Both the position numbers and the translations under genes were made by a program. Under the pieces are notes generated by a model. It made no database searches and had not been told where the DNA came from. It saw only the letters and a list, made by a program, of their open reading frames with translations. This document shows, one piece after another, positions 2,747 to 60,102 of a DNA stretch of 64,000 bases. Where the stretch lies: positions 25,730,001 to 25,794,000 of the forward strand of contig JBHGNT010000003.1 of NCBI GenBank assembly GCA_043228905.1. Direction: 5' to 3'. This stretch comes from Azolla caroliniana. Taxonomy: Eukaryota; Plantae; Polypodiophyta. How positions within the stretch are numbered: position 1 is the stretch's first letter; each line of letters opens with the position of its first letter.

Positions 2747-4444
2747 GAAGACTGATCCATTTTTCAAGAAAATCTAATCTAAGACTCACGTTGCACTAAG
2801 ATTCACAAAGGTCTATCACTTTTTCAATAGATCCTGCGTTTATTCAATTAAAAGAAACATTTGCATGACTAAATATGAAATTGATCAATTAGCAATTAAC
2901 CAAAGAACAACAAAATGAATAAAAAAAAATGTAACTAAAACCCATCACTTTTCCAACACTTATGATTCATTCAAATTGAAGAAATGTATGTTTAACTTAA
3001 GATGAAGTTTGATAAATTCATAATTGACCAAAGAAGAGCCAAGGGAATCCAAGAAAATGTAATAACTTTTTTAGTACTTCATGTGATTCTGAAAACATGC
3101 ATGCATGACTCAAGATGAAATTTGATAAATTAATGATTGACTAAAGAAGAGCAAAGGGAATTCAAGAAAATGTAATCCAAGACTCCTGTAGCACTACGAT
3201 ACAAGATGGCCCATCACATTCTTGGCACATCTTGTGATTCATTCAATTCAAAGAAATGTATGCGTTGCTCATGCTTCAATTTGAAAATTTTGTATTTGAC
3301 CAAAGAAGATAAAAGGTATCTCAAGCAAACATTAAGCTAAAACTCTTATCACACAATTATATAGGAAGACCCATTCATTCACTTCTTCAGCCCTCTTCCT
3401 CCGTTTGTGGACCAACTATTGAACAAAACGTTCATTAAGTACAATCTGGTATGGTTATTTCACACACAAGTAGCATACTTTATCTCATCGCTTTGTACCT
3501 TATGTTTTGCATTTTTCTACATCCAATGAAACCTTAAAGTGGCATCTCTCTATTGGAGCAAGTATAGGTGGAGCGAATCTGTCTTTTTGATGGGACCAAT
3601 GTATTTGTTTTTCTTCTTATATCACTTGAGGTGCAAAAGTAGGCCTCACACGTTTTAGGATTTTTTTTTTTTTGGGGGGGGGGGGGGGGGTGGGGCAGCC
3701 CCTCTCGTGTGTTTAGTTTTTATTAGTGAAATTTCCGAATCACTCAATAATGATTTGTATCTTTGTTTTTCAGTCTCTCCCATATGTATGTGTGTGTGTG
3801 CGCGTGTGCGCCCATGTGTGTATTTATATATTAAGAAAAGAAAAAATAGGCCAATTGGAAATTTTATAAGGACCTCAATAGGTCATTCGCAAGACTTTTT
3901 TCATAATTTTGCAAAGATTATAGAACATTCAAGCAACGATAAAGAATCAAGTGAGTAGGAGGATCTTGATTCATTCATATAGAGTCAAGACTACCCGAAC
4001 AACAACTAATTTTGTTGTAAGTATTACGAAATAGAACATATAACTAGCAAACATAGGCATTGGTTTCTCATACCAAATCAGGCAATCTATTGAGCCATTT
4101 TGTCCTTTGCATCTTTCGTAATATCAAACACATGATCTCTTTGCATATCGTGAATTTCTAGCCCATTCAATGATACTCACATAAGATCATCTAGATGTTC
4201 TACGTCCACTTAGTATTTTCATCGCCTTAATGACAAATTGCATAGAGAACCCGCTCTCCTGAACAACAATGCTAGATGGAATAATAAAAATAGCTTGGAA
4301 CGGATTCACTAAATATGGGAAATTATCTTGCCAATCATTCATTTTCCAAACAAATGCCAAGTTCATGCACAATATAACCATATTTTCTTTTTAAAGCTTC
4401 AAAGCCCCTCTAGTGTGTTTAGTTTTTATTTGTGAGGCCTTCAA

Positions 4445-6932: not shown

Positions 6933-8781
6933 TCACCGCCATGTATTATGCATATACCACCCTTCGGTGTTGCGACGAAAGCGATGCTTATTTATTTGAG
7001 CATTTTGGAATGCACAACAAGCAATCACGTAAACCACGATGATCACAACTAACACGATCACACTTAGCAAGGCAATTTTCCTCCATGGTTGTTTCACATT
7101 GGCTAGGACACTAGCTCGACACGAGTCACAAGCGTAGCACAAATCAGTTAAACCATTGCTCCAACGTGAACAATCAGGTGAAGCTAAGCTATTGCTTGGA
7201 TTGGTCCACATGGTAGTGTTGTTTGGCTCGATCATTATTGTGAACCCACAAATTTCTGGTGGGATACAACATCCATGCTACACAAAACATATTATTCAAA
7301 TCAATGCACAAATTTGGCAATCACCCTCTTTTTATGCGAATTATTGCCTTTTAACATGACAAAAACTTCCAAGTTTTTTCTTTTCTGTGTATATCTTTGG
7401 TCTTTATGAATCATGATGCAAAATTAAATGATAAAGAATTGTGTAGAAAATAGGTGTCAAATGATGAACAAAGCATGCTTCGACATGTGAAATGGCCGGA
7501 AAAGTGACATATGAAGGGCTACTAGGTTGGGGCACAAACGATGATTCTTAATATTGATTCAAATTCTAGATACAAACTTTGTTCTTTTCTTTCGAGTTAG
7601 TTTAGGAGGCATACATCTCACAATGCATGGTAGCATTTGTCTTGTCTCACTCATTTAGTGATTCCTTGAACTTGCTTCACACATACACAATAATAGAAAT
7701 TGTTTTTTTTTTTTTTTTTTTTTTCAACATGGTAAAAAGTTTTTAAAATTTGGATATATTAAACATAACAAATTTGGTGGACATGCTTTTAAATTTTGGA
7801 TTTATTTAACATTACAAATTTGGTGTACATGGAATTAATGGTAGTAACAAATGTAATACATAGTCTCCTTTATAGATAGATTTCATTCCACAAAGTTTTC
7901 CTTATGTTCCTTGAAAATTTCTTAGGGTTTTTTTGTTGGGGCTCAAAACGTTTAGGGTTAGGGCTCAAAAACTAGTAGGGGCAAAAGGCTTTGGATATCT
8001 TTTAGGGTTAAAAAACCTTCAGTGTTCTACTTTGAGTTTCAAATAACTTTTAAGGTTGGGGGGCTCAAACACGTTTAAGGCTTAAAGGCTCAGAATATCT
8101 TTTACTTCGGGTTTCTAAAAACTAGTCTTAATGTTAGGCTTGGGCTACACGTATTGTTTTGGTTCTACCATCACACTTGGGTTTTTAAACCTAAGGGTAG
8201 GGCTAAATTTGGGATTTTTACACATACACTTGGTTTACAAGTTAATGCTATGTATTTTCAAATAAGGGTAGGGCCAAGTTTAGGATTTTTACCTGCAAAG
8301 ATGAGAGATCTATGGCATAAAAATTGGAGATACTTTTGACATCTTGGTTCACCTCTTTGCATATTTTTGTGTCCTGGATACAACTCTCAATCTTGGCCCA
8401 ACTCTTCGAATTCTCGACTTGTTCACGCAACCACCACGAGTAATCTTTCACCTCATAATTTGTTTGTCCAACCAAGTCCCTTGGTCCGTCTTTTGTCACG
8501 ATGAACGTAAACACAATAAATGAGAGAAGTAGCAAAATGATGAAAAACATAATGAAGAGGTAGATGTAGAGAAGCCACACTACACGATTGAAAGCACCAA
8601 GGCAACCAAGAAGAGAGATAACGAGGATGAAGAGGCCAAGGCCAATGATTGACCATTGGAGGAACTGCATACACTCGGTGCTTGGCCTCGTAGCTAGCCA
8701 TATCCCGCCTCCAATGAGAGGGATTGAAAGCAAAAATGTTGTGATGTTCACCACTCCCGTGATTATATTGCTAAGAGGCAT
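6933..8781 (-). CDS. Tetraspanin, 2 exons (8781-8293, 7277-6933)
   Basis: Plant tetraspanin motifs: LSIPLIGGGIWL, C..FLQW, three N-terminal TMs, and W.KI.SC. The GT-AG intron joins LQ to HGCCIPP (canonical GCCKPP). WSN...LCY.CDSCRA.VL and a fourth TM follow. Confidence 0.93.
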
Positions 8782-11174
8782 ATTTGTTAGTGGAGATTTG
8801 TGTGGTTTATTATTACATCCATGTCTTTGGTAGGAGATAAATAGTTTCCTATTTTTTTTCTATTAGTGATATATCGTTTGTGTTGTGTGAATCCACTCCT
8901 TATAAACATCTTTGCTCTGTCCCTTTCTTGAGAAATATCTTTGCTTCTTCCTTTCAAACATAAACTTTCCATTTCTTCAGAAATAAAGTTGTGATTACGT
9001 TCGCAGGATTCCTCAAATCTATATGGGACCAAAAGTTGATACACCAAATAGGGGGTGGGGATATAGGTATCCTTACACACATGGAACCACATTACCCTAA
9101 ACCCTAAACCCAATTCCTGGTGTCCACTCAATATTATCCACCAAGTCAAGCTCATATTTATTGTATATCTAGATTCTAAACTTTATTGAGGAGGCACCCC
9201 CTTAGTCTTTGCCTCGCAAGTGGCATCAACTAGAGCCTACCACTTCTACTCATATACACCGTTGATCATATTGCATAGGGTTGAGTCAACTTTATTTCTA
9301 TCCTATCTACAAACTTTGTTGGAGCTATGACTCAATGGCATGATTTAGAGTCATGCTCATATATCACCTTGAATAGGACAATAAAATACACAACTCACCA
9401 AAAACATTATTTTCAATGTATCTATATGAGAAACAATGATATGTCTTAATTTTGAACAATACCAAAATATGTTTGGTCAAACAATGCTCATGACTAGTTA
9501 ACCTTAGTATTTTGCTAATAACCTATTTAATAACTGAGATCATGGCCATGGAGAGGATTGTGGAATATAATTTGAAAACGAAAATAGATTGCATCAATTT
9601 CTAAGAATCACATAGTAGTATTTACAAAAGCCCAAAAAACACACCAAAGAGATCGAGTTCTAGATGGATCCAAGCAATGAATAAGTAGTTTTGACGAAGC
9701 TGAGATGGATTAGAATCCCTTTATGATGTGTTCAATATAATCCTTGGATGGTTGAAGGCTTTTTGCAATGCTAATACATTATAGCTTGGGGTTGTTGAGG
9801 TTAAGGCTTATGCATCATATTGTGTATATTGCACCAAGCTACAAAACCACGTTTTTTAAATTAGTAAACTGTAATCGCTCATGCATGTTAGAGTCCACCC
9901 CTCTCTCTCCAACTTGTGCTATTGCTTCCAAATGACTAAGCTCACATTTCTTTTGTTTGAGTCAAGGCATCAAGACACGACGAGGAAACTCATAGAGTAT
10001 GCAAGATTTTCATCAAAACTAATCATCACATGCTGCTGCAATGTTGGACCTTTGATCATGTTTGGCCTTCCTTTCTAACAATAGGGACTGATTCAGTTTG
10101 GGAATCTCAAACTCAAACCATTTTAAAAATTTCAAATGTAAACAAAATTGAACCGCAAAACGTTTAAGCCAAAATAGTTTAAACCAAAACCATTTAAACA
10201 AAATTGTTGCTATACGCACATTTCCCTATTTTCCCCAATATGTACTCTTAGTTGTGTCATTCATTAAGAGTACAATTCTAAGATACTAAGAGTCAAATTT
10301 CAACTCATAATGTTTCAAGTTCGTCCCAAGGGAAATGTTAGACCACTTTGAACAAGAATCATCTTTATCTAAATCTTTCTCCCCCTAGAATGATAATATA
10401 CCATCATGATTTAGTATCTAGTTATATAAAACAAGGCACGGATCATCCACATAAAAAGATATCATGTTATCTTCATTTACTAGAGTGGGAGCTTACTCAA
10501 TAGTGAGCACTACGAAATATGAATAATCAAGAACTCAATATATAATTACGTGTCTTGTTTTCTCACAAACACAATGTAGACCCAATTTCGATAGATGATG
10601 CAAACGTCCCTTTTCATGTGACCACTTGTAAAAGTTTCTTTTTCCTACTTGCTTTTCTTACTTCATTTATGCAACATAGTAGTATTTCCTAGGTCAATTT
10701 CTTTTTCTTTATGGATTGCCAAGTAAGGATGGATTATGCACATTGATACACTTTCAAAGTGATAATATATGGGTATCTATTGATGTATACATGCACACAA
10801 TCCTCCAAACTTCAAAGCAACAATCTTGCATTTCATGGGTGTGACAATGGTCGGCCCACCATCATATGGTTGATATGCGATTAAGATTCATCCCAGTTTA
10901 GTATTATTGGATTTGTATTGCATACATATTTACATATCATGATTAAGAACAAACTCACCGCCTTTATTGGAATGAATGCTTTCTTGGAGAAATATTATTT
11001 TTATGGAACGGATCCTTGTTGCATTAAGTCATGCAAAGAAAGACTAGTGCAATCGATTACTACAGCGTGCAAGGACATGGCAAAGGAATGCCCCCCCCAC
11101 CATCCACCAAACAAATAATGAAACAAATGCCTTTAGTGATGAACCACAAGCATGCAATTAGGTAAATTGACAAG

Positions 11175-11401
11175 GATGCCACAATTTTTGTTGTTTGACC
11201 ACCTATCAGCAATATTGCCTAAAAGCATGTGGTAGCATTAGAGCTACATTAGCAGGCAATGAAATTCACAAGGAAATTGTACAAAAAGGTGTTGAAAGAG
11301 ATTATTTCATTGGCAATACATTAGTAGATATGTATGCTTAATGTGGGTCACTTGCCGAGGCATAGGTGGTATTTTACAGGCATTCAGTCAGGAATGGATC
11401 T
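11175..11401 (+). pseudogene. PPR (PLS-class) gene relic, left part, split by transposon
   Basis: Translates as LKACGSIRA...GNEIHKEIVQKGVERDYFIGNTLVDMYA*CGSLAEA*VVF...VRN with in-frame stops; continues at 20729. Confidence 0.85.
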
Positions 11402-11437
11402 AACACGTTCGCGTTCACAAGTGGAAGGATTGCGCAT
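11402..11437 (+). repeat. Left terminal inverted repeat
   Basis: AACACGTTCGCGTTCACAAGTGGAAGGATTGCGCAT is the reverse complement of 20693-20728 (35/36). Confidence 0.95.
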
Positions 11438-12448: not shown

Positions 12449-15400
12449 TTACATAGCAATCAATTCATCTACGTCATTTTCTTCATCATCTTGTGTAGAA
12501 CTGTCTTCGGCTATACGTGCATTGGTTTCCCCTGTTAGCCGGGCCAACGAAATATCTTCTATAAGCTCATCATCAAGCTCTATTAGCTCTCCCGGTTCGC
12601 CGGCTAACGGAGGAATAGGCTCTCGCGAAGCGGGTTGAAACCTTTCTGTATTGGCGAGGTTCTTTGCACCGACCTCCTCATCCTGGTCTGGGTACTCCCA
12701 CAAAGCCTTAATCCGCATATTAATAAATATAACTTGGTCCTCGTCCTTCTCCAATGCAACTGTATTCCTAAACAGCTTCAATGCACATGCTGACGTAGTT
12801 CCTATGATGTAAGTAACAAGAAGATTTAGTTGTCAAACGAAAAAAGTGATTGGTTATCTCAAGATCGTTACCCTAGTTCGAGGAATACCTGTGCCAGAAA
12901 AGAGATCTAATATCCAGTCTCCTTCGACAGAAAACATCTCGATCAAGCGCATCATAAGTCGTTGAGGTTTTTGGTATGGGTTGACAAGTCCCCGTTCTGT
13001 CGTGGTGACATGTCGCAATTTCCGAGTCACTGCTGGATATACCAACAGATTTGAACCTCCCACTTCATTAGAATGCTCTTTGATTCTCTGTTTTTTAATT
13101 TCATCGAAGTAGCCAACCGTTATGTATTCAATGGCATTAACGAACCGAAAAGTTGGCCCTCTATTTACATTGGTCTTGATCCTATAAAAAAGAATTCATA
13201 GAGTTAAAAATAGATTCAACAACCTTAAGAATTGCAATATAATGAAAGACACCTATAAATAATCCTTACCATGCAAGGTTCTCGATGCCATGGCAACGAG
13301 ATCTCAAAGCTTGAGCTACCGAGTACCCTTGGTCCATACTATGAAAGACAACTATTCGCCACAAGGATGCGGTCGTTAGCTCAGCGAAATCCTTGACCAT
13401 CTTCTCCAATTGTTTAAACCTAAACGGTTCATCGTCGTATGATGACCCAGCCATTCGAAATCCGTAAGGAATATCCGCAATCATTAGCGTATATTCCTTC
13501 TTTGGCACCTTCTGGATCAAGTCGATGACATCACCGCAAACCACATTGTAGTAAAGATCTCTCGTAATATCTTTCTTGTGGCTAAATTTTTTAAACGAGC
13601 CATCTTCCTCCATTTCGTACGCCTTGACTAAGCGACGATCCTTTTCTTTTCTGGCTCGCTCGAGATGTGCAAGGAAGGATGTAGGGAAATCGTGTATATC
13701 CTTAACTTCTCCTTGTTTCTTGCCTCGACACGGTTTCTAATAGAAGCAATAGGACATCAGGTATTATTATACAAGCTCTACATATGATGAAAGGGTAATG
13801 AAAAAATATCAATACTAACCCAATCCTTGAATGCAATAAAATACTCTGATAACGCCTTATACGAAGACGTTAGAGGATAATCCTCGGTCACTTGTTCCCA
13901 AGTTATACATCCAAGTTGTTTCATCATTACTTCTTGGATCTTCATGTACACCTTATGACTGTAAAATTAGAAATCAAGATTAGAACTTTGAATTACACCA
14001 GATAGACTACAATTTCAGTATTTGAAAGACTTACTTATTGAACTCGGTGACCATTTCTTCAAGGCTTAAATCTTTCGCCACAACCCTTGACAAAACGGAC
14101 ACAAGAAGCTGCTCGTCCTTAATACCTTGCATCGCTCTCCATAGAGACAGCTTCATGTCGTCTGCCGCTTCTTCAATTGTCAAGTCAATTTTCTTGGCGG
14201 CTTGTGACTTTAATTCTAGTTGAGGGTCAACCCTACATTTCTTTTGTCGTTGACCCTTTACCTCCTTATTCTCCCACATTGAGAAGATTTGATCTTGGAG
14301 GTCCCATACTTCTCCATCTCTAAACGCCAATTGAAACCAAGATTCATACTTTCGAAGACCATCGGACCTAACATTATCATCTACCACAATGCCGACTTCA
14401 TGCAGACATTGACGTCGAAGGCCTGGATGTAACTTCACACCAAACTTTTGTTTCACATCTAAATACTCGTGGTGGAAGAACCGGATACGCTCAATAGACG
14501 ACATTTTCTGCCTATAGTCATTATCATTATTATGGTCCCATGCCAACAGCTTAGCCTCTTCGGTTGTGAGCCCAACATATATTTTGCACTCGGCATACTT
14601 GAAGAAGAAAGTGGTTGGATGTTCTCTTACAAGTTGTCGACGTGCCTCTGCTGAATGCGATCCACCAATGACAAAATAATTATATTGATCATGCTTTCTG
14701 ATATCAAAATCTTCAATGGTTTCACATTCTTCAGGATCCACCATAACAATAAAAGGCACCACTGTGGCATGAGGATTAATTTTCATTTTCTTCTTGAGAT
14801 TTTGAACATGCATGCGATGAGGCTCTCTAATCTCAAGTGGTCTTCGACCTGTTTTTTCATCAATAGGGGGCCGATGGATGTGTGTTATAGGCAAATTAAA
14901 TACTTGCCCTTTCCTGACCAGCTTCCGTTGCATTAACTCTCTTCTTATTTTATTCTGCTCGGATGACAAAACACCCGAGGCCAGCTCGGCTCCTGGCGTC
15001 CCCTTATTATCCTCTTCTTCATTTTCACTTGTCGAATCCGTATCCGACATTTTCGTTGTCTTCTTCTTGGCTGGTCTTGACTGGACTTTGGATACCTTTT
15101 TAGTGGCCTTCAAGTGGGAGGGCTCTTCATCTCGTAGAGTTACATGGCCTTGTATATAAGGCCTCAAGGTAACAATCAGGTTTTGTGAGTTATCAAGTGC
15201 TTTTTTGAACACTTCAGGCCCACAAGATTCCTTTACTAAAAGATCTTCTGAAAGGAACACCCTGCGTACCCCCTTGGAGCACTCTATCATTACCAGTATG
15301 TTGGCCGAATCTGCATCTTCGTAGTCAAATCGTAGAATTCGGCCATACATAAATGGAGTTTCTTTTCCTAGCTGCCCCTCACCCTTCTTCTTTGCTGTAT

Positions 15401-16767
15401 ACAATACGACTTTTTTCTTTGAGTCAACATATTGCATACACCATTCCTTGTCCGTTAGATCTCGGTCAGGAAGGTCTTCGCCTCCAGTAGCGGCGACAAT
15501 TTTCTTTTGGCTTACATCACTATGGGGCTGAGATTTTGTCTCTTCGTTAAAGAGAAGCTTTTTTCCTCTCTTCATGGTCTCCGGAGTTACCTTGGTCTGG
15601 GCTTCGATTGGAGAACCTTGTATGCGAAGCTTAATTTTCTTCACGGGTCGGTCTGACAGATTCTCAAACGACCTATTTAAGAAAGTATATGCAAAAACAT
15701 AAGTTAGACAGTTACGTAGATTGAAGTTGTTATTATAATGAAGAACAGTTTCTAGGAGCAGTAACATATTCAAAAATCTATTCTAGGCAGGGCTATTCAA
15801 CCTAGAAAATATATATCGTAATAAGTAAAATGGGTTATATATTCTTTTAAATAGTAGGTATGACTTACATAGATTCTAAACCTATATTGATGAGAATTTG
15901 CCATAGTGAATGCAATTTGTAGATCATTTTCTACTATTTTAAGCTAAAGTAGGTCAAAAAACACCTATAATTAGAGCATGTATTTGTTTAGAAGTAAGTA
16001 AACTCAAAATAAAAAGACTGATTTTGACAGACAATTTGATAACATTTCCACCCCGTAAACGATTTTTCTCTCTCAAAGGCTACACTTTAAACACGAACTC
16101 GATACGGCGTATCGAGTTCGTGTTTAAAGTGTAGGTTTTAAACACGAACTCGATACGCCGTATCGAGTTCATGTTTAAAATTCAAACTTTAAACACGAAC
16201 TCGATACGCCGTATCGAGTTCGTGTTTAAAACCTATACTTTAAACACGAACTCGATACGGCGTATCGAGTTCGTGTTTAAAACCTACCCTTTAAACACGA
16301 ACTCGATACGGCGTATCGAGTTCGTGTTTAAAACCTACACTATGACTACGAACTCGATACGCCGTATCGAGTTCGTGTTTAAAACCTATACTTTAAACAC
16401 GAACTCGATACGACGTATCGAGTTCGTGTTTAAAACCTACACTTTAAACACGAACTCGATACGGCGTATCGAGTTCGTGTTTAAAACCTACACCATGAAC
16501 ACGAACTCGATACGCCGTATCGAGTTCATGTTTAAAACCTATACTTTAAACACGAACTCGATACGGCGTATCGAGTTCATGTATACAATACAAATATTTA
16601 TACACGAACTCGATACGGCGTATCGAGTTCGTGTATAAATATTTGTATTGTATACATGAACTCGATACGCCGTATCGAGTTCTTGGGAAACGAAACATAT
16701 TTACAAAAATGTCCACAGTGTCAGAGGCCTACCTGGACTCCTCGCGCTCGACTCTCTTGGAAGACAT
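12449..16767 (-). CDS. ParB-like domain + beta-class N4-C/N6-A DNA methyltransferase fusion, 6 exons (16767-16733, 15672-14035, 13958-13820, 13736-13270, 13181-12889, 12801-12449), ~974 aa
   Basis: Five GT-AG introns join in frame (2925 nt, no internal stop). The MTase has GDVIDLI...LMIADIPYG (motif IV), WIK...EYI, YQKPQRLMMRLIEMFS.EGDWILDLFSGTGTTSACALKLFRNTVALEKD (motif I FxGxG). The ParB-like region reads LPITHIHRP...IRE...HVQNLKKKM...PFIVMV...YFVIGGSHSAEARRQL. Confidence 0.85.
16080..16682. repeat. Array of 12 palindromic units (51-52 bp period) in intron 1 of the MTase gene
   Basis: Unit TTTAAACACGAACTCGATACG-N-CGTATCGAGTTCGTGTTTAAA plus an 8-bp spacer. Centres at 16107, 16158, 16209, 16260, 16311, 16362, 16413, 16464, 16515, 16566, 16618 and 16670. 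Confidence 0.97.
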
Positions 16768-16819: not shown

Positions 16820-16884
16820 GAGTGCTCTGTGTGCTCTGTGTGCTCTGTGTGCTCTGAGTGCTCTGTACGCTCTGTACGCTCTGG
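16820..16884 (+). repeat. 9-bp minisatellite (TGTGCTCTG-like) in the predicted 5' UTR of the MTase gene
   Basis: About 7 tandem GTGCTCTGT / ACGCTCTGT units. Confidence 0.8.
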
Positions 16885-16907: not shown

Positions 16908-16920
16908 CCTATTTATAGGG
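16908..16920 (-). promoter_or_regulatory. Putative TATA box for the ParB-MTase gene
   Basis: Minus strand reads CCCTATAAATAGG, about 140 bp upstream of the ATG at 16767. Confidence 0.55.
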
Positions 16921-17590: not shown

Positions 17591-19531
17591 ATGAGTGAAG
17601 ATTCACCGTTCTCGATTGAAGAATATTGTTTGTCATCAGACCCATCGTTTTCTACTGAAGAGTATTGTTTATCAACAGAGTCACCATATTCGATTGAAGA
17701 ATATTGTCTTTCGACCGACTCACCATATTCTATCGAAGAATATTGTCTGAGCTCATCTACAGGGAATGCAAATAATGACACATGTGAAGAGTTCTCTATT
17801 GAAGAATACGATATTAATAAAGATACCGGGAATGAAGGAAGTGCCCAGGAAACATTGAATAACATTGGCGATGGTCAGAACAGAGAATTAGACTGTAACA
17901 AGGTTACACCAACCTCTATGCAGGAAGAGAAATCTGGGAGCCCTATGCATATTAGAAGAATCCCACGAAGAATTCGTCTGGCTAGATTTAGCTTGGTGAC
18001 ATCAGATAAACAGATTGGATTTGATGTCAACAAAATATGTTGTGCCCGTGGTTGTATGTCTATGATTGGAAAATCAAAGTTGCGAGAATTAAGGCGATAC
18101 TATTTTTCGATGACCGGTGATGAGCAAGACACTTACCTCGGATCACATATGCAACTAGTATCTGACAAATGTACGGGGATCAAAGTATCATTCGAGTATT
18201 ATATCTTCCATGCGCAACAGATATGTAGAGTTGCATTCAAAATTGTGTTATGTGTTAGTAACATGCGGCTACATAGAGTACAACAACGTCTACTTAGCGG
18301 GGATCAGATGCTCAATTGTAAAGAGGTTCCAAGTATGAAAGGTGCAATTGGAAGACTAGCTATTGGCTGGATGAAAACTTACTTTCAGTTAAATTGTGAA
18401 GTAATGCCCACTACAGGTAGGATGCATCTTTCTGATAATTATACCCGTCGGGAAGTTTATGATGTCTATCGATCTGAAATGCTGGGCTCACGTAATAAGT
18501 CTATCACCTATAGCCAATTCACAAGATTATGGAGAGCTCGGTTTTCAAATGTTATTATTCCTCGTAAAGTACGTATGGGTTATTGCTCCATTTGTGCAAA
18601 TCTTAAAAGTTTGGCTAAAGGTGCAAAGACATCAATGGAAAAGGATACGAGTAAGAAGTTACTACAAGAGCATCGTGAGGCACAATCCTTAGAACGAAGG
18701 AAGGCGATGCATCATAGAGAGAAGTGTTTGAAGAGGCCTGAACAATACATGTGCTTAATGATAGATGGCATGGACCAGAAGAAGACATGCTTGCCGCATA
18801 TGCGGAGGCTCCCCAAAGATGTCAATGATGAGTGCCTTGTTCAAATGCACTTGGTGGGATGCTTGGCTTATAATAGGTCTGTTCGACCTCACGTCTTCAT
18901 TACTTACCCCAATGTTCACAATGACCCTAACCTAACAGTTACAGTGATTCACCGAGTTTTGATGTCTTGGGGACAACCTTTCCCCCCTGTTCTATACATT
19001 CAATTGGACAATACTGCTAGAGAGAACAAAAATTCAACTGTATTTGGCTATCTAAGTATGTTGGTCAACCTAGAATTGTTTAGGAAAGTGAAAGTCAATT
19101 TCCTTTTGGTTGGCCACACACATGACCATATAGATCAGATGTTTAGCACATTCTCCAGACAGTTGTCTCGGCATGATGCTTTCACTTTACCTAAACTATT
19201 TGATGTCATTTGTGATGCATATACACCACGCCCAAAAGTGTTACACTTGAAGGAGGTATATGACTTTAAGAGATATATATTAGATGGGGGTGGTGGGAAT
19301 GTTAAAGTGCTTGCTCAGTTAAACAATATAAGTTTCAATCACATTTTTTTGATAAAGAAAAATGGAATAAGTGGTTCTACACTTTTGTATGCTAAACAAT
19401 ATTCATCTTCTACAACATGGGAACCTGAAGGTGGTTGCCAGTTATTACTTTGTATGCCGAGTACATTGTCCATGGAGCTAAGCAAATGCCAATTGAGAAG
19501 AAAGGACAGTTGCAGAGCGACTTGGTATTAG
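17591..19531 (+). CDS. DDD transposase, Sola-like (N-terminal and catalytic part)
   Basis: Cys cluster CSIC...H, then catalytic-type motifs CLMIDGMDQ, LYIQLDNTARENKN and FLLVGHTHDHIDQMFS; lies within TIRs. Confidence 0.85.
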   Translation: MSEDSPFSIEEYCLSSDPSFSTEEYCLSTESPYSIEEYCLSTDSPYSIEEYCLSSSTGNANNDTCEEFSIEEYDINKDTGNEGSAQETLNNIGDGQNRELDCNKVTPTSMQEEKSGSPMHIRRIPRRIRLARFSLVTSDKQIGFDVNKICCARGCMSMIGKSKLRELRRYYFSMTGDEQDTYLGSHMQLVSDKCTGIKVSFEYYIFHAQQICRVAFKIVLCVSNMRLHRVQQRLLSGDQMLNCKEVPSMKGAIGRLAIGWMKTYFQLNCEVMPTTGRMHLSDNYTRREVYDVYRSEMLGSRNKSITYSQFTRLWRARFSNVIIPRKVRMGYCSICANLKSLAKGAKTSMEKDTSKKLLQEHREAQSLERRKAMHHREKCLKRPEQYMCLMIDGMDQKKTCLPHMRRLPKDVNDECLVQMHLVGCLAYNRSVRPHVFITYPNVHNDPNLTVTVIHRVLMSWGQPFPPVLYIQLDNTARENKNSTVFGYLSMLVNLELFRKVKVNFLLVGHTHDHIDQMFSTFSRQLSRHDAFTLPKLFDVICDAYTPRPKVLHLKEVYDFKRYILDGGGGNVKVLAQLNNISFNHIFLIKKNGISGSTLLYAKQYSSSTTWEPEGGCQLLLCMPSTLSMELSKCQLRRKDSCRATWY

Positions 19532-20370
19532 AACAAAAACGGTCATGGCTCCAAGCCTTAGAAGAAAAAAGAAAACATATTGAGGCCGCCAAGAAATATG
19601 CCACACAACAAGACACGTCATGGTGGGATGTATTTTATAGTGATCAGAAAGAAATTATAGACAATTGTGTATCTGTTGATAATTGGAATTTGGAAACGCC
19701 ATTCACATGGTCGCTGCAACATGATCGCGTAAATAGAAGTCCGGAGCGACTAGTAAATGCGATTAATGACAGCTTGGTCCATCCACAACAAAGAGACATT
19801 TATGTGGGACCAAGGATGACCAAAGCAGCCGAAGCTAGATGGCAAGGAAATTTGCATGAGCTCACCGCGGGGATGTTGATTGCAACGCCGGCTGATGAGA
19901 ACTCACATGGCCACCAATTTTGGGTTGGTAAAATTCTAGAAGTGCTAATGCATGAAATAGATAACACGATCAAGTCTATAAATGTTCATTGGTACAACAC
20001 TAGAAGTGCAAATGCTTTTACAGGTAAGTATACATTGGAGATGATTGAATGCCAAACAAGAAGGGGAGGTAGGAAGAGGAAGCGAAACATTCGTAACACC
20101 TCGACCCTTGATATCTCTGATGTGGATATCATCGTGTACGACTTCACACTTACAAAAGCCGGACGATTAAGGAAGTCAACAATAGATATAATAAAAGAAA
20201 AATTACCAGGTCTACAAGGTGGCTCGAGTCAAAGGCAAACGAGATCTGCTACATATAATCTAGAGTCAAACCATTTGGTTTATGACGAAGATAATGCACT
20301 GATTGGTACATCCGAGGATGATGAGGAGGAATCGTCATTGTATATTAGTTATAGTAGTGATTCTCCGTAA
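19435..20370 (+). CDS. Probable frameshifted C-terminal part of the transposase (possible BAH/Tudor-like beta domain, NLS, acidic tail)
   Basis: 311-codon ORF overlapping the transposase end. One added base near 19461 would fuse ...LLCMP to EYIVHGAKQMP.... Contains FWVGKILEV...VHWY and RRGGRKRKR. Confidence 0.6.
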   Translation: MPVITLYAEYIVHGAKQMPIEKKGQLQSDLVLEQKRSWLQALEEKRKHIEAAKKYATQQDTSWWDVFYSDQKEIIDNCVSVDNWNLETPFTWSLQHDRVNRSPERLVNAINDSLVHPQQRDIYVGPRMTKAAEARWQGNLHELTAGMLIATPADENSHGHQFWVGKILEVLMHEIDNTIKSINVHWYNTRSANAFTGKYTLEMIECQTRRGGRKRKRNIRNTSTLDISDVDIIVYDFTLTKAGRLRKSTIDIIKEKLPGLQGGSSQRQTRSATYNLESNHLVYDEDNALIGTSEDDEEESSLYISYSSDSP

Positions 20371-20692: not shown

Positions 20693-20728
20693 ATGCGCGA
20701 TCCTTCCACTTGTGAACGCGAACGTGTT
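20693..20728 (+). repeat. Right terminal inverted repeat
   Basis: ATGCGCGATCCTTCCACTTGTGAACGCGAACGTGTT followed by the ATCT target duplication. Confidence 0.95.
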
Positions 20729-20790
20729 ATCTCTTGGAATGCACTTATTGCAGGATATGCGGAGAATGGGAAATTTGAGGAAGTGCACTA
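20729..20790 (+). pseudogene. PPR relic, right part
   Basis: ISWNALIAGYAENGKFEEV, the direct continuation of the motif broken at 11401. Confidence 0.85.
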
Positions 20791-21374
20791 TCAAGTCTAT
20801 CAAACGAAGGATTCATGGCTAGCCATTGTCTTACACAAGACGAGCTTGATAAGGATAGTTGCGTCCTTTCCATCTATTTTATATTTTGTAGCTAATATGC
20901 TTTTTAAAACTAATGGAAGGATATGTTCTTTTGGTCCAGGATATGTTTCCCTTGTTCTGGATTGAAAATCTCCATTCTTAGGACTAATAGTCGGCGACGG
21001 TTCGCCGAACCAAACTGCGTCTTCGATCGCTCATTCTTGTGGGCATGAGCATGGATCCTCAAAATGTAGAAGTTATGTATATACGTATATGATATATATA
21101 CATATGTATGGCTTATTAAAGGAAAAAGAAATGGAAAGAGAGAGAGAGAGAGAGGGAGAGAGGAAAAATGCGACGACATTTCAAGAATAGTGTTGAAACA
21201 TGTTTCTGATGTAACTTTGTCCTCAGAACTCCATTTTTATGATTTTTGGCTCGTTGCGAATCTCGTTCAGAGGGCTTTCCAAGGATTATTTGGACGTTAT
21301 GTTTCATTATAATTACAAGAAGATACAAGCAAAAATGTCATCGTCTCAGGTTAGTTCTCTCAATCTCTATTAGG

Positions 21375-24300
21375 ATGGCTGACACAACAATAGGAAGTGA
21401 GTTGATGATTGTTGATGGATGTGGTAGTGATGATGGTTATGAAAATTACAAGAGGCAAAAGTGTATTGATTCTACAAAACATGAGAAAACATCATATGCT
21501 GCTATTCTTGGTGGGAAATATGTTATTGGAGATGATTATGATATTGACAGTCATCGTGATTTTGTTAAGGCTTTGCTTTCCGATTTTATGGAAAAAAAAG
21601 AGAAAGATGCTAAAGATTGTGTGGAGGAGGATGTTGTTGAGGTGGTGATGGAGACCAACTCTATGTTAGCAACTTTTGACAGGTTCTATGATCGTGGTGT
21701 TATTTTGTATTTCACTAGTAAACTTCCTTTGGTATCATGGATTAAGTAGTGGTTGAATTCATTCATAATGCCTAATTGTGTTGAGGATGTGTATGTGGGT
21801 CCAAGAGGTTTCTATGATGTAGTTTTTCGATTGTCAAACCACTGTACAGCTTTGATGGGAAAGGTACCAATCTTTTTTGATAGAAGATTAGTGCATGTGA
21901 TGGAATGGGTTCCAGCGGTGGATTATAAAGATTTATTAAAACAACAATGTCCAATTTGGGTGACCGTTGATTGTAGTAACTCATTCTTTTGGGATTTACT
22001 ACCAGGATTGATGTCCCAAATTGGTAACATTTTGGTTGCTCCTCATGTTAATTCGTTGAACAAATGTAGATATTGCATGTTATGGGATACAAGTTGTAAA
22101 CTTCCAAGATGGTTGAGTATCGATACATCTCGATTTGGTTGATTTCGTTTTAAGCTTCAATGGGAAACTTTTGCAGGACATTGTTTTAAATGTGGTAAAT
22201 TGGGGCATTTTATGGCTGAAAGCCAATATCATGGTGAACTATCCCCAAAAAATAATGTCAAAGGGAAAAACAAGGAAGATGTTGAGAAGGATATTGTTTT
22301 GATATGGTCATGGATGAGGGAATATCTCATGGGTTAGAGCGAGATCCTAAAGTTCATGGTCATGTTAGAGGTGTTGGGGAGGAGAATGGAGTATGTAATA
22401 ATGATGGCCCAAATGTTGAAGATAGAGAGTGGCATCAAGTGAAGCATGAGATAAAAGGGAAGGGTGTTGCCATACAAAGGGGGAAAAAATACTTATTGTA
22501 CGACATTACCAAAAGATAATTTGAGATTGAAGGAGGGGTTTAAGAAAAATCCTTGGCAAAAACAAGTGCGAAATCAGATATTGTCCAACCAATTACAATT
22601 CGATTCTTCAAGAAGGGTGGTACGACCTCAATTAAATCAAGGACTTCATTCTCGTGGAGCCAGACAACAAAACCCTAATATTGGTGGAGGGGATGCAGTA
22701 CACACAAATCCTTATGCAGCTCTTGAACAAGTAGTTAGTACATTCATGAATACACTTGCTCATAAAGAGCAAGTTCTTACCAAAGGTGTTAAATGAAAGT
22801 TGTATCATGGAATGTGAGAGGGGCATCTTCTCCTCATAAGAAATATATATTATGGAAAACTTTATTTGATAAAGATTGGGATGTTTTATGTGCAATTGAA
22901 CATAAGTGTCATGATTTAGTAGGATCTATGTTACATTTGCGTGGATATTCCACATATTATCCAAGACAATTATCACATTATTACTCAAGGGTTGTCATGA
23001 TTATTTGTGATTCGTTTTGTCCACATATAGTCTATAATGATCCATATGGACGTTTTTTGGTGATGGAAGTCAAGTATTTTGAGGATTTGATATGGTTGGT
23101 TGGAATCTATGCACCTAATAATGCTAATCAACGCATTGAGTTATGGTCTTCAATGTATCCACGGTTATTAGTGGGACATGTTGGTTTGTTAATGGGTGAT
23201 TTTAATATGTGTGTTGATGCTTCACAATCTACTTTGCGATTCTCAGTGATGGATTCTCCTGAGCAAGCAGTTTGGGACAAATTGGCATCAGAGGTTTTGA
23301 AGTATCAAGATGAGGTTGGGTTTACATTTCAGTCTATGCAATACAAAGAAACATGGAGTAGGTTAGATAGAATGTATGTTATGCATGATGAGTCCTTTTT
23401 GCCAGAGATGCTTAATATGTCAATTATGCAAGAGGTTGTGACATCAGATCATTTTCCCATATGTTTTGAGTTTAATAAACATGGGGTAGATATGTACAAA
23501 ACATTGCTTCAACGAGTTCCTTTGAGGTTTAATTCTTCTTTATTATTACATTCTTTATTTGATGCCTATATGCAACAAAATTTTGGCATGTTTTCAGAAC
23601 AAGTTATTTCAAAAGGATGGCATGCATGGGATACAACACTACAAAACATCAATGATATTCATCGTATGTATGGTATGACTAATGCTAAAAGACGTAGGAA
23701 ATTGATTGATAAGTTTTCATATATTCTTATGTGATGCAATGTACTATTGATGAATAATCCACATGATGAAGAGCTTTTGGATGTTCAAGTTCAAGTACAT
23801 GACATTGTGAAGAATTTGTCTTGTCAAAGTTATCAACATACAAGACTACGCCAATTAAAGGAGGGATTTATAGATAATCAATCACAATCTCATATGTTTT
23901 TTCAAGGATTAAGACCACCATATGCTCGTTCAAATGTGGTACAAATTAAGATAGGGGATGCCATTGTTGTAGACCCAGTCAAGGTTATTGAGTTATGTAT
24001 TACTCATTTTAAGAATTTGATTGGGCCAGAGTTAATTATTAATGAGGATGTCTTGAAAGCACGACAAGAGTTTTATAACGTAATTGGGAGTGTTGTGAAT
24101 ACAAATATTTGTCAAGAATTGGATGTTGATTTTGAAGAAGCTGAGGTGGAAAATGTATTGTTACACCTTCCAAATGGTAAAAGCCCTAGCTCGGATGGTG
24201 TTACAAATGAAGTTTTTAAGAAGTATGCTAGCATGCTTAAGAGTTCATTCACACAAATGTTTCAACGATGTTGGGATTATGGTTTCATGCCTGAGAGCTA

Positions 24301-26745
24301 GAAGGTGGGGTTAATCAAATTGATACCAAAGGTACCATCTCCGGAGTCATTTCATCAATGGAGGCCTATTTCATTGATGGGAGGGTTGTACAAAGTGTTT
24401 GCAAATATATTATCCAACAAACTTAAGAAGTTCTTACCTCAACTTATTCATCCATCTCAATATGGTTTTATTACAGGTAAAAATATATTGCATAATGTTT
24501 TGAATGTTCAAATGGCGACTAATTATACTCGACATACACATCAAGAAATGGTTATGGTGCAATTAGATTTGGAAAAAGCATATGATCATGCTAATTGGTC
24601 TTTCCTCTCAGGTGTGATGTATAATATGGGGTTTGGTCCTCGTATGTGTTGACTTATCTTTTTGTTAGGGCAAAATGCAACCTCCCGTGTGATGCTTAAT
24701 GGTGGAGTCACTCCGAAAGAGTTTCTTACTAGATTCGTGTGGCAAGGATGTCCACTAAGCCCATTGTTATTTGATATTGTTACACATCCTTTGTTAGTAA
24801 TGTTGTCACATCTTGCGACCAATGGTGATATTGTGGGTTTGCATCTTCCTTCTGGTGGACAATTGGTGGCACAAGCATTGACAGATGATTCTTTTATGTT
24901 TTTACAAGCCTCAAAAGAAAATCTTAAAAGGAGTATGCAAGTTTGGGATCAATTTGTTTTGGCTTCAAGGTTGTATATAAATTGGAGGAAGTCTCGCCTT
25001 ATTTCTTGTACCGAGAGTGATTTGGAATGTTTGGGATGGCGAGGGTCAATGATTACACGAGGTTCAATTTATCGACATTTGGGTTATCCATTAGGCATTG
25101 ATGTCACAAATGTTCAATTGATTGATTGGATTGGTAGTAAATTGAGGGACAAATTTATGTATTGGAAGCCTCAATTATGGCCCTTTCATGCATGACTCAA
25201 AGTGGTGCAATGTATCTTGATACCCATGTTATTATATTTGTTGCCTTTACTTTCTTGGACTAAGAAGGCATTACAAAGCATGTTACAACCTATTATTCGG
25301 TTCATGTTGTGGCGGAAGGGAGAAATGATGGGAGTTACATGGATTTCATGGGACCATTTGGCTACTCTTAAAAGGTTAGGTGGTGCAGCAATATTGGATT
25401 TGGAAAGGCATTTGATGGCTCGTAGATTTACATTATTATGAGATATATGTCAACAAGATCAACCATGGATATCTATGATGCAATATTTTATTGAGCATGA
25501 AGGATTGGTGCATGGGAAAACAAAGATTTAAGCATCATGGTGGTCACTACTAAATGGAAGTATTCCTCTAAAGATTCGACATTCTGTATGTGGACAACAT
25601 TTGGTAAGATCGTGGCAAGATGCATTATCTCTTATTGAATGGGGACCATCAAGTGATCAAGAATATTGTAATTCATTACAAAACGAATTGCTTGTTTATT
25701 CTCGAGTGTTGTTTTGGCATGGGAAAGAGAAGTTGAGATCTCAATTCAATTGTTTATTTTGATTGGGAATTGTACATTTAGAAGATATGGTTGATAATGA
25801 ATCTCAAAGGTTGTCGGATTTTGAAGATGCCAAGAGATGGTTATGTATTCCCCCAAATTATGGATTTATTTGGGAGAAATTACATGATAAACCATTGTTG
25901 CAAGGATCTTTGCCATTGAAAACCAATTTTGCACCTTGGGTAGATTGGCGGTTACAAGATGACACACGCTTGTTACAGGTCACTACAAATATATTGTATT
26001 ATAATGCGATGATATTATTATCTTGGCTATCTCCTAAAGCAACGAATGTGTGGAATGTATATAAGTTAGATGTAAGGTGGTGGAAAATATTACAACGTGG
26101 TTGGCATTCCCATCTACCATTTCGTGCAAAGGTATTAATATGGAGAGTCATGATTGGTGGGCTCCCATTAGGTTCGGCCTTAAAGCGACGAGGACTAGGG
26201 TCTATCACTTGTTTCTTTTGCACCGTTCCATTGGAGGATAATACACATAGGTTCATTAAATGTCCTATAGCATGTACCATTTGGAAGTACTTATCGGACA
26301 TTTGACAAGTTTTACCTGTTGTTGTTTGTGACCTCAACAATGGGTTTTTTCTTAATATGTTCAAAATGGATCAAATGATGAGATGGAGATATTGTTCCAA
26401 TTTTTACGTTATTGGGGTCTACAACACAATTGGAATATACGTAATGCTTTAATGTTTGATAATAGACATGGGGTGAAAGCCTATATAAAGAAGCTTAAAG
26501 GTATTCTTATGTGGAAATTTTGGATGTTAGAGCATGTGGGGATCATTTCCTCAAATGCATATTCAGGTTTTTTAGTAGCATTACAGAACGTCCCTCTCCC
26601 TACATAGGCATATGATAGGTAGAGGAGACTAAGAAGTGTTGTAACTAAGTGGATTTTACATACAATTAATATAATTGTGTGCTTTTACCCAAAAACAAAA
26701 AGAAAAAAAAGAAATGGAAAGAAAGAAAGGAAAATAAAAAACAAA
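21375..26745 (+). mobile_element. Near full-length degenerate L1-type LINE (ORF1, then ORF2 with EN, RT and zf-RVT; A-rich tail)
   Basis: ORF1 fragments have PIWV and the zinc knuckle CFKCGKLGHF. ORF2 from 22793 reads MKVVSWNVRG, GIYAPN, GDFN, SRLDR, SDHFP, WRPISL, QYGF, LDLEKAYDH, QGCPLSPLLF, LTDDS and CFFC...HRFIKCP. Many stops; A-rich 3' end. Confidence 0.93.
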
Positions 26746-36458: not shown

Positions 36459-37880
36459 CAGTAGACATTCGGTTAAGTGCGTGCCCACTTAAATGTGCCA
36501 TTCTATTAAGTGCGCTTTTTATAGAGGTCAAAATAGAGATCATAAAAATTTCATTATTTCATGATGAAATTACATAAAACCAAATTGAAACTATATTCTA
36601 AACATTCAAAAAACAACAAAATGATCAACATTTAATAAAATTGATGTTGTGAACCACAAAATGAATTGAACTTAGATCTTGCATTCCTACCATTGCATAG
36701 GTTGGGTGAGGGTCAATGAAGTGAAAACTATCGATTGGTTAATCAATTAATAGCTCATTATGTGGACTCATATTAGGGGAAAGCTATTAATTGATTAATC
36801 GCTCATTATGTGAGCTCACATAAAGGAAAAACTATTAATCGATTAATAGCTCATTATGTGGACTCATATTAGGGAAAGCCATTAATCGATTAATAGTTCA
36901 TTATGTGAGCTCACATAAAAGAAAAACTATTAATCGATTAATAGCTCATTATGTGGACTTACATTAGGGGAAAGCTATTAATCAATTAATAGCTCATTAT
37001 GTGGATTCACATTAGGGGAAAGCTATTAATCGATTAATAGCTCATTATGTGAACTCACATAAAGGAAAAACTATCAATCGATTAATAGCTCATTATGTGG
37101 ACTCACATTAGGGGAAAGTTATTAATTGATTAATAGCTCGTTATGTGGACTCACATTAGGGGAAAACTATTAATCGATTAATAGCTCGTTATTTGGACTT
37201 ACATAAAAGAAAAACTATTAATCAATTAAAAGCTCATTATGTGGACTCACATTACTGGAAAGCTATTAATTGATTAATAGTTTTTCTTTTATGTGAGTTC
37301 ACATAAAACAAAAACTATTAATCGATTAATAGCTCATTATGTGGACTCACATGAAGGGAAAGCTATTAATCAATTAATAGCTTGTTATGTGGACTCACAT
37401 AAAAGAAAAACTATTAATCGATTGATAGCTCGCTACTCTTAGGTATTTTTGTAGCACTATCTCAACCAAGTACGTGGATCGTTTCTCCTAAACCACATGC
37501 CACAATTCAAACTAACGACATCACGCACAATCTCTAAACGATTACAATCTAAAATATGTAGAGAATCAGGCCATCTAAACTATCCACAAGACCTCCCTTC
37601 TCTTCCGAATCTTTCTCTCGTATTCATAGCATAGACACCAAAAAATAGACATAAGAAAGAAACGTGGTGAGTGACATGGATTGCAGCAACGTGGGAGCGA
37701 TTATAGCAGCAAGGAGGGCCTCAACGATGGCTGTTGGGGTTGGGCTCTCTCAAAATTAGAACAGGAAAGAAAAAATTGGGATTTTTTTTATTATTACTAA
37801 AAAAGCCCTAAATGCGCAGCTCGGTTAAGTGCGCACTTTTCCCTTGCGTTCAAAGTGCGCACTTAACCGAATGTCTACTG
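36459..37880. mobile_element. Non-autonomous Tc1/mariner-pogo-type TIR element with TA TSD
   Basis: TA|CAGTAGACATTCGGTTAAGTGCG ... CGCACTTAACCGAATGTCTACTG|TA (23-bp perfect TIR); no coding capacity. Confidence 0.88.
36727..37433. repeat. ~15 x 48-bp tandem array with palindromic core CTATTAATCGATTAATAG
   Basis: Unit (A/G)CTATTAATCGATTAATAGCTCATTATGTG(G/A)ACTCACAT(TAGGGG/AAAGGA)AAA repeated at a ~48-bp period. Confidence 0.92.
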
Positions 37881-58838: not shown

Positions 58839-59253
58839 ACGCTCTGATCGAGGTGGAGAATTCTTATCAATAGAATTATGTGAGTATTGCAAAGAGCATG
58901 GAATTAAGCGCCAACTTACAACTGCCTACACCCCACAACAAAATGGCGTTGTCGAACATCGAAACCGAACCATTGTCGAGATGGCTAGGTGTAGAAGGCA
59001 CAAGCGTTGCCCGACCCATTCTGGGTTGAAGCAGTGAATACAACAGTTTACATCCTCAATCAGAGCTACACGAAGGCACTTCAAGGTAAAACCTTCAGAC
59101 TTCAGAACCTTTGGGTGTGCGTGATATGCACATGTTCTAGATGTGAGTAGAAAGAAGTTGGATGCTAAAAGTAAGACGTGTATCTTTCTCAGATATAGTG
59201 AAGAGTCAAAGGCCTATCGACTCTACGACCAAGAGGCAAGAAAGATATTGACA

Positions 59254-59660
59254 AGCCATGATGTGGTGTTCGATGAGGAACGACCACAACCAGCTGAGAA
59301 CAACGATTCTCAAGTTATTTCATCAACCAAAGAAGTATTCCACCCAATCTTGATCCACTGTCCAGAAAAGGAAGCTGAACCATTTGAAAAGCCGCGATGT
59401 GGTGTTTGATGAGGAACGACCACAACTAGCTGAGAACAACGATTCTCAAGTTATCTCATCAACCGAAGAAATATTCCACCCAATCCTGATCCACTGTCCA
59501 GAAAAGGAAGTTGAACCATTTGACAAGCCGCGATGTGGTGTTCGATGTGGAACGACCACAGCTAACTGAGAACAACGATTCCCAAGTTATCTCATCAACC
59601 AAAGAAGTATTCCACCCAATCTTGATTCATTGTCTAGAAAAGGAAGCTGAACCATTTGAT
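59254..59660 (+). repeat. Three tandem ~130-bp copies in the copia A integrase-RT linker
   Basis: AGCCGCGATGTGGTGTT.GATGAGGAACGACCACA...GAACCATTTGA occurs three times. Confidence 0.9.
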
Positions 59661-60102
59661 GGTAGTGGCTCGATAGTTCAGCCTATGTCAGTGCCACATG
59701 TAAAGAAAATACCTAAGTGGGCTAAACAACTCTTCAATGACCATACTTCTAAAGTTGAGTCTCCTGAAATTTCAACTGATGGGTTACGAAGATAAAGAAG
59801 AATACATGAGTAAGGGAGAACCTTTGATCACATTGTCAACATGGCTCTGATGGTGGACATCATAGGCTTAGTGAGTGAGCTGAGCTCGGTGGAGGAACCC
59901 ATGGCCGATCCGAAGTGGAAAGAGGTTATGATATCAGAATACGATAACATCATGAAAAATGACACGGGAGTTGGTAGAGAGGCCAACAAAGAAGAAGGTG
60001 ATAGGCACCAAGTAGGTGTGGAAAGTAAAGTAAAAAGTTGATGGTTCTTTGGAGAAATTTAAGGCCATCCTAGTAGCGCAAGGATGCTCTCAAATTGAAG
60101 GG

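Follow-up and report, generated by a model that had tools for sequence, protein, structure and literature searches.

What is known about the systems that come closest to a transposon with an array of palindromes and a candidate protein to read them? First, VANC proteins bind tandem repeats in the introns of VANDAL elements and remove silencing, which has been shown experimentally (PMC5735166). Second, in Plavaka elements of the red alga Bostrychia, tandem inverted repeats adjoin the gene for PAG3, a protein with a ParB domain, and binding followed by self-modification has been proposed (bioRxiv 10.1101/2025.02.11.637652). Third, Sola1-1_Ec32 from the brown alga Ectocarpus carries, opposite its transposase gene, a gene for a ParB-like protein with an N4C/N6A methyltransferase, again with a proposal of self-modification (PMC12477816). 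The idea pursued here is therefore already in print, as a proposal, for red-algal Plavaka and Ectocarpus Sola1. Fourth, fusions of ParB to PF01555 (N6/N4 methyltransferase) are described as common in phages (bioRxiv 10.1101/2025.10.10.680097), and Iyer et al. described a clade of Dam enzymes fused to ParB-HTH, different from the protein considered here (PMC4738411). Fifth, retrotransposons that carry a DAM gene have raised 6mA in some hosts; such DAM-LTRs are reported absent from streptophytes, which are said to lack abundant 6mA (bioRxiv 10.64898/2026.05.21.726589).

The locus described here lies in a 64-kb window (64,000 nucleotides, the whole stretch of DNA that was analysed) from Azolla caroliniana; its features are collected in Table 1. 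Within a plant DNA transposon of 9.3 kb, the palindrome array forms a conserved component; this transposon has 36-bp terminal inverted repeats and ATCT on both sides. This target duplication is visible only in the window copy, not in the related elements L003, L004 and L007, which are possibly chimeric assemblies. There are two genes only between the termini. One encodes a transposase of the DUF7869 family (PF25273, E 1.1e-51), whose nearest named relative is from Ceratopteris (57%); the transposase of the related locus L012 has an open frame of 933 codons and served as the reference for the frameshift in the window copy. The other is predicted to encode a ParB-methyltransferase fusion, with the methyltransferase domain (PF01555, E 3.5e-8) at the C-terminal end of the model. 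No ParA family was found in the six element ORFs scanned. The element seems to have inserted into what we take to be a decayed PPR-like fragment (about 11200-11401 and 20729-20800, with readings such as ISWNALIAGYAENG). Elsewhere, the window holds a PLAC8/DUF2985 gene (514-2253), a tetraspanin exon (8248-8859), a decayed LINE with endonuclease, RT and zf-RVT (21243-26305) and a Copia-type element (about 59000-64000).

Table 1. Features of the element, its genes and its palindrome array (window coordinates)
Feature	Position	Strand	Details
Left terminal inverted repeat	11402..11437	+	ATCT precedes (11398-11401)
ParB-methyltransferase gene, predicted, six exons	12449..16767	-	974 codons + stop; no internal stops
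Exons 1-3, predicted	16767-16733, 15672-14035, 13958-13820	-	
Exons 4-6, predicted	13736-13270, 13181-12889, 12801-12449	-	
Motifs of the predicted fusion protein			GGSH (aa 348), DIPY (692), QKP (830), FSGTG (854)
ParB N-terminal fold and predicted HTH-type helical domain	14271..14966	-	approximate limits
Intron 1, predicted	15673..16732	-	1060 bp; GT at 16732 to AG at 15673
Array of 12 palindromic units	16086..16691	.	cores 16095-16682; 8-bp spacers
Common unit motif	16086..16691		roughly TTTnnACAn(G)AACTCGATACG-N-reverse complement
TATA-like box, function inferred	16910..16917	-	seen in sequence upstream of exon 1, between the divergent genes
DUF7869 transposase gene	17591..20370	+	frameshifted near 19465 in the window copy
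Right terminal inverted repeat	20693..20728	-	followed by ATCT (20729-20732), giving a 4-bp target-site duplication

How does this locus compare with the described systems? Like Plavaka PAG3, it combines a transposon accessory gene for a ParB-like domain plus a DNA-modifying domain with adjacent tandem inverted repeats. The Plavaka elements belong to a red alga and have an EnSpm/Plavaka transposase, whereas the transposase here is DUF7869; their ParB domain is fused to a 2OG oxygenase, with the methylase on a separate protein (PAG2), whereas here ParB and methyltransferase form one protein; and their arrays stand beside the PAG3 gene, whereas the array here falls in a predicted intron of the gene itself. 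No analysis of site conservation was found in the accessible text of the PAG3 paper (bioRxiv 10.1101/2025.02.11.637652). With Sola1-1_Ec32 the element shares, judging by the published description, a 4-bp target duplication, terminal repeats and a ParB-methyltransferase gene on the opposite strand. The termini are alike (AACCG..CGGTT there, AACAC..GTGTT here). Host and size differ, the brown-algal element being 21.5 kb long with 282-bp terminal repeats. The main text of that paper gives 0 matches for "palindrom", and its table row for Sola1-1_Ec32 lists no palindrome array (PMC12477816). As in VANDAL, there is an accessory protein and there are tandem repeats in non-coding parts, including an intron of the protein's own gene, here as putative targets; VANC acts in trans on related copies, as the fusion protein may do on gene-less ones. 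However, VANDAL elements are Mutator-type, with non-palindromic, fast-diverging motifs of 8-9 bp, whereas the site here is a long palindrome with a core that is fixed across subfamilies, and the element here has a ParB fold, an enzyme domain and a DUF7869 transposase. As with DAM retrotransposons, a prokaryote-type methylase, probably for adenine here, rides on a mobile element; the DAM elements are retrotransposons, and the accessible text of the paper on them has 0 matches for ParB. Like bacterial ParB-parS, Noc-NBS and KorB-operator systems, the element has a ParB fold with a helical domain, a modelled dimer and palindromes clustered near the gene. Unlike ParB-parS, it has no ParA, no Box II arginine and a eukaryotic gene that is predicted to be spliced, and its palindrome, 25-43 bp with a one-base centre, is longer than parS, which is 16 bp. 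No land-plant report of such an array or of a ParB-methyltransferase transposon was found in the literature searched, with subscription journals and supplements largely outside the search, and the 12-bp half-site turned up there in four papers, a single time in each, all of them about unrelated matters.

The array consists of twelve exact 25-bp cores, GAACTCGATACG-N-CGTATCGAGTTC, with centres from 16107 to 16670. Nine core-to-core intervals are 51 bp and the last two 52 bp, and TRF reports 16080-16682 with period 51, 11.8 copies and a score of 864, which bears out the recurrence every 51-52 bp given in an earlier note on this DNA. That note equated the period with about five helical turns. This holds only at 10.2 bp per turn; at 10.5 bp per turn, 51 bp is 4.86 turns (-51 degrees per unit), so that helical phasing is approximate and strict phasing is not supported. 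The units had also been described as 43-bp palindromes around a nearly invariant core. The core arms are in fact fully invariant, with all 24 bases fixed in the window around a variable centre (G in 6 units, C in 5, A in 1), but perfect arms of at least 21 bp occur in only 7 of the 12 units, the remaining units having 12-14. None of the 288 bases in the cores diverges from the consensus, compared with 22 of the 216 in the flanks. Nine of the spacers measure 8 bp, as had been said of all of them, one of these being unlike the others and the first inverted; two are 9 bp and derive from a 67-bp fold-back at 16551-16685, formed by the last units. An array with spacers of 8-9 bp that are related to one another is not a CRISPR array, as the note had already stated, and no cas family was found among the 34 window ORFs scanned. 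A loxP-like arrangement (inverted arms around an 8-bp spacer) was also considered and set aside: no recombinase family was found among the element ORFs scanned, and the arms across the spacer agree at 77%, compared with 75% in shuffles. A second tandem array lies at 36739-37431 in the window (48 bp x 14.4 copies, with a 12-bp palindrome per copy, consensus TTAATCGATTAA); the ORFs near it gave no Pfam match that convinces and do not resemble ParB or DUF7869 proteins.

The CpG density noted earlier, with two TCGA sites per unit, is confirmed: there are 24 TCGA sites across the 12 units, and CpG o/e over the array is 2.91. This richness, together with the position in a first intron, would suit a site that is read by a host protein, either a transcription factor or a sensor of CpG methylation, with the element keeping an enhancer. 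Such a reading is quite improbable. The core half-site, taken as an 8-, 10- or 12-mer, has no other occurrence in the whole 64 kb, and the adjacent gene encodes a palindrome-binding fold. An invariant half-site of 11-12 bp with outer TTT and ACA blocks is longer than a typical plant factor site.

The gene around the array is a prediction, and so is the placement of the array in its first intron, although the splice sites listed in Table 1 yield a stop-free model of 975 codons, stop included, and L001, L009, L011 and L012 also contain exon 1 followed by this donor. The array occupies the 5' end of this predicted intron, with the last core 50 bp short of the donor. In run X15, unspliced pieces were seen. 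Two further repeats lie close by: a 9-bp repeat of 6.9 copies (16822-16883) in what is predicted to be the methyltransferase gene's 5' leader, and, at 17612-17746, a 39-bp repeat of 3.5 copies that codes for an acidic repeat of 13 residues at the transposase N-terminus.

Is the array conserved in other copies of the element? Metagenome contigs were scanned with the exact core, which gave 12 loci in 8 assembly accessions; because loci were collected via the core, derivatives without one could not appear. All 12 loci also hold parts of the element (a terminal repeat, methyltransferase exons, exon 1 or transposase). The earlier note had asked for sister copies and for unrelated satellites or MITEs: the array is present in the metagenome loci of the element family, and no exact core was found outside that family. 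A free-standing satellite or nested MITE was rejected on the same 12/12 association, and inspection of the window sequence at the array edges showed no termini of its own. Neither the exact core nor relatives of the ParB region were found in the viral contig collection, and a 23-bp core was not found in prokaryote genome contigs. Sequence look-alikes in other genomes were set aside, with 3/87 words in common.

In seven gene-bearing loci, within the reach of each contig, the units occupy the corresponding position between the first two exons, and across all units listed for six gene-bearing loci 23 of 29 intervals are 51 bp. Between the window and L005, the unit-1 core is identical at 25/25 positions and its flank at 5/9, while the intron-1 body is 55% identical and the small introns are 66-76% identical. 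A wider comparison used 52 half-sites of relatives, drawn from units in 50-64-bp series only (off-series units and L004-L007 are omitted), with one exact seed per locus taken out; these are not independent trials, since an array consists of related units and some units are common to L002 and L008, which also inflates the significance given by Fisher tests on them. In this set, positions -11, -8 and -3 are kept in 52/52 half-sites and the inner 11 bases in 45-52/52; the outer TTT and ACA blocks are kept in 42-50/52 and -12 in 35/52, while -13 matches in 21/52, its commonest base varying by locus. Spacer identity is 3.95/8 between loci, 6.04 within them and 2.69 at random, so the spacers called near-identical in the window are not so between relatives, although their length stays. 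Thus, as far as these alignments go, the core is fixed while the intron body, the spacers and one flanking base drift. Joints from unit to unit were found in contigs of runs X3, X8, X17 and X19 (four organism labels). Three of the four public runs have thousands of contigs on the element, mostly less than 99% alike, which indicates many divergent copies; contig depth is no measure of copy number and was not taken as one. The contig comparison in runs X3, X8 and X17 used one array unit, to which deletions of a whole array are invisible. In run X17 the array unit is covered and the intron-1 body almost without cover, missing cover being uninformative there. In L012, two different exon-1 copies, at 9381(+) and 10071(-), face the array from both sides, which reflects either two elements that recombined at their palindromes or a chimeric assembly.

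Could such an array be a neutral palindromic minisatellite, grown by slippage and template switching and homogenised by conversion? The window does have signs of inversion and fold-back (the inverted first spacer and the 67-bp fold-back), and unit number is variable. Indeed, symmetric changes at -12 exceed those in shuffles (5 vs 2.1, P 0.011), so some arm-to-arm copying occurs. At -11..-1, however, there are 0 symmetric changes among 29 mutated bases. Homogenisation spreads the locus-specific bases at -13 and in the spacers rather than the inner core, and the cores are the same in elements with about 50% identity in what is left of their genes. The neutral reading is already weakened by these data, and its chances are slim.

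A different explanation starts from RNA. The earlier note had suggested that the spliced intron might be a hairpin source of small RNAs, which could be the selected product, for self-silencing or as a decoy. The array strand folds at -445 kcal/mol (z-score -46, vs 20 shuffles), and small RNAs may well arise from it as a by-product; VANC target repeats are themselves described as RdDM targets (PMC10398659). As the reason for conservation, however, the hairpin is not supported. In the variable flanks, the arms within a unit agree at 314/414 positions, compared with 310.1 +/- 4.6 after shuffling, so that it is the sequence rather than the pairing that is conserved. There is no Rfam match at gathering score among the 84 listed. 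Finally, cores persist outside the gene, where the intron context needed by a hairpin-RNA role is gone. Selection for small RNAs is thus very improbable.

The copies in question are gene-less derivatives. L003, L004 and L007 are elements of 2.9-3.5 kb with both termini, 96-98% alike, in unrelated flanks, and L006 and L010 are partial relatives of them. Of the genes there are remnants only, which match the proteins encoded in the window at 44% and 51-56% of amino acids. The termini are near-identical, and there are 1-3 exact cores along with older, CpG-depleted units; the period is lost, with intervals of 50-587 bp and units mostly unphased. The L007 stretch is covered in 30/30 bins in four runs. 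Keeping exact cores in an element without genes is the behaviour expected of a cis-acting site that is read in trans. In L007 (about 3020-3140), L003 (3040-3645), L004, L006 and L010, the exact cores adjoin a tRNA-like segment with A-box- and B-box-like motifs. The segment recurs, both direct and inverted, in modules of about 220 bp; ARAGORN and Rfam called nothing in it. Its contig cover is the deepest in four runs, so that it could also be part of a different, SINE-like repeat.

The gene-less derivatives bear on two further readings. In the first, the fusion protein binds the array as a repressor, a self-limiting switch comparable to a KorB operator, and its binding or methylation near the start of intron 1 would lower expression from the element and keep copy number in check. 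The last core does lie 50 bp from the exon-1 donor, with the TATA-like box at a distance of about 230 bp, KorB is among the structural neighbours of the protein, and arrays do decay at CpG: among changes at CpG positions in relatives' cores, 19/21 are C>T or G>A, which implies that many arrays were cytosine-methylated and then decayed. A purely repressive site, however, should vanish where there is no gene left to repress, and the derivatives keep exact cores. This switch is an unlikely explanation. In the second reading, the array serves the transposase, as a binding or enhancer element for end pairing or transcriptional activation, and the methyltransferase gene merely hosts it. Cores and termini retained in non-autonomous elements would fit any cis-element for transposition, and a preprint reports, in its accessible part, that transposases can act as sequence-specific activators. 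Yet 4.7 and 4.0 kb separate the array from the two ends of the element, and its sole likeness to the terminal repeat (AACACG) requires the base at -13, a position that varies freely among relatives; the likeness was rejected for that reason. In Plavaka, moreover, tandem inverted repeats beside a ParB gene occur under a different transposase and with a different effector, so that arrays go with the ParB domain there. A transposase site is accordingly improbable, and the reading that we prefer remains one in which the fusion protein itself recognises the array.

What is known about this candidate reader? The domain model of the second exon has a pLDDT of 85, and its best Foldseek matches are ParB and Noc (E 1.6e-5), with 12 matches at E<=0.001. 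For the ParB fold, the structural neighbours are PadC (Z 9.5, rmsd 3.0, 99 aligned) and KorB (Z 8.9). The helical domain matches the DNA-binding domains of KorB (Z 4.8, rmsd 4.1, 105 aligned), SopB (Z 3.7) and ParB (Z 3.6) weakly, at scores level with those of unrelated helical bundles; it stands at the expected position behind the ParB fold and is strongly conserved. A homodimer was modelled through the N-terminal fold with 0.54 vs 0.00 for the best control, with contact agreement among runs of at least 68% and pLDDT of at least 75. The mark applied is reached by 21/30 solved homodimers and 0/23 monomers in a microbial benchmark and by 17/29 homodimers and 0/30 monomers in a eukaryotic one, although the pass may stem from likeness to solved ParB dimers. 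Over the ParB and HTH codons, comparison with L005 and L002 gives 67 and 95 synonymous and 11 and 10 non-synonymous changes, a sign of strong purifying selection on these codons. The subfamilies compared have the same core, and their N-terminal 245 residues drift. Chara, Ginkgo, Adiantum and Riccia provide named relatives for the ParB region (7/10 proteins looked up). In Riccia sorocarpa, the locus tags of a ParB-methyltransferase (R1sor_010796) and a DUF7869 protein (R1sor_010795) are consecutive, which suggests the same two-gene element in a liverwort.

The earlier note had proposed parS-like loading, or cognate binding or methylation sites for the fusion protein, with autoregulation. The Box II site of the protein reads G-S-H-S-A-E-A, with Arg in 0/32 aligned rows that have a residue there, the column having been located by motif spacing rather than by residue-level structural alignment. 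The Box II spacing used is GxxRxxA. In other ParB-fold proteins this arginine is described as required for nucleotide binding (bioRxiv 10.1101/2025.10.10.680097). Its absence makes CTP clamp loading and sliding doubtful, and with them the parS-like loading. Cognate binding has fared better: it is supported indirectly by the ParB fold, the modelled homodimer, the conservation of the core only, its retention in gene-less copies and the red-algal precedent. As for the enzyme, the catalytic motif is D-[I/F/A]-P-[Y/H], which differs from the canonical DPPY, and DIPY ahead of FSGTG is presumably the order of a beta-class methyltransferase. The enzymes closest to the methyltransferase of the Ginkgo relative are RsrI, MboIIA and CcrM, all acting on adenine, and N4-cytosine enzymes rank much further down, which weakly favours 6mA as the mark.

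How might the parts work together? The array is real and conserved, and it probably has a function. Its units are likely sites at which the ParB-methyltransferase of the element binds, and this enzyme would mark the element to its benefit; we give this combined reading an even chance. Its parts fare better separately: the fusion protein probably binds the palindrome array and, given binding, a marking step in favour of the element would be a good bet. First, one dimer would bind each palindrome, with contact through the helical domain behind the ParB fold. Second, several bound dimers would concentrate the methyltransferase beside the promoter region between the two genes. Third, the enzyme would then modify element DNA, probably on adenine. 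Fourth, the protein may act in trans on non-autonomous copies, which would explain why cores are kept there. Fifth, by analogy with VANC and VANDAL elements, the mark or the bound protein may offset host silencing, and methylation would likely help to keep the element active. So understood, the array would work like parS or a VANC-type target array, without being a partition site or belonging to a VANDAL system. CpG o/e is 0.7-0.9 in the element vs 0.4-0.6 in host DNA, but this is not above the bin at 60-64 kb that contains Copia (1.04) or one L012 flank (0.85) and so is no specific sign of protection. Since the arrays decay by CpG transitions, any shielding from cytosine methylation by the host would last for a time at best. 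Core words are not enriched elsewhere in the element (TCGA 146 seen vs 159 expected), and k-mer enrichment in the element gave no candidate methylation motif.

What does this mean for the element family and its hosts? New here is the conservation evidence that defines a testable site: the family supplies a defined, highly conserved candidate site together with an apparently intact gene in a land plant. The intergenic DNA between R1sor_010796 and R1sor_010795 of Riccia sorocarpa is the obvious place to look for co-variation of site and protein. A broader picture is possible, and we hold it only tentatively: a family of cut-and-paste transposons across the streptophytes might use a phage-derived ParB-methyltransferase on its own array, with 6-methyladenine licensing transposition of the copies that have the palindrome, and gene-less parasites might keep that palindrome as a password. 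If true, the marking described here would be a second, enzymatic route of transposon self-marking, possibly with local 6mA in land plants, and it would provide a compact module of site plus writer for targeted epigenetic marking.
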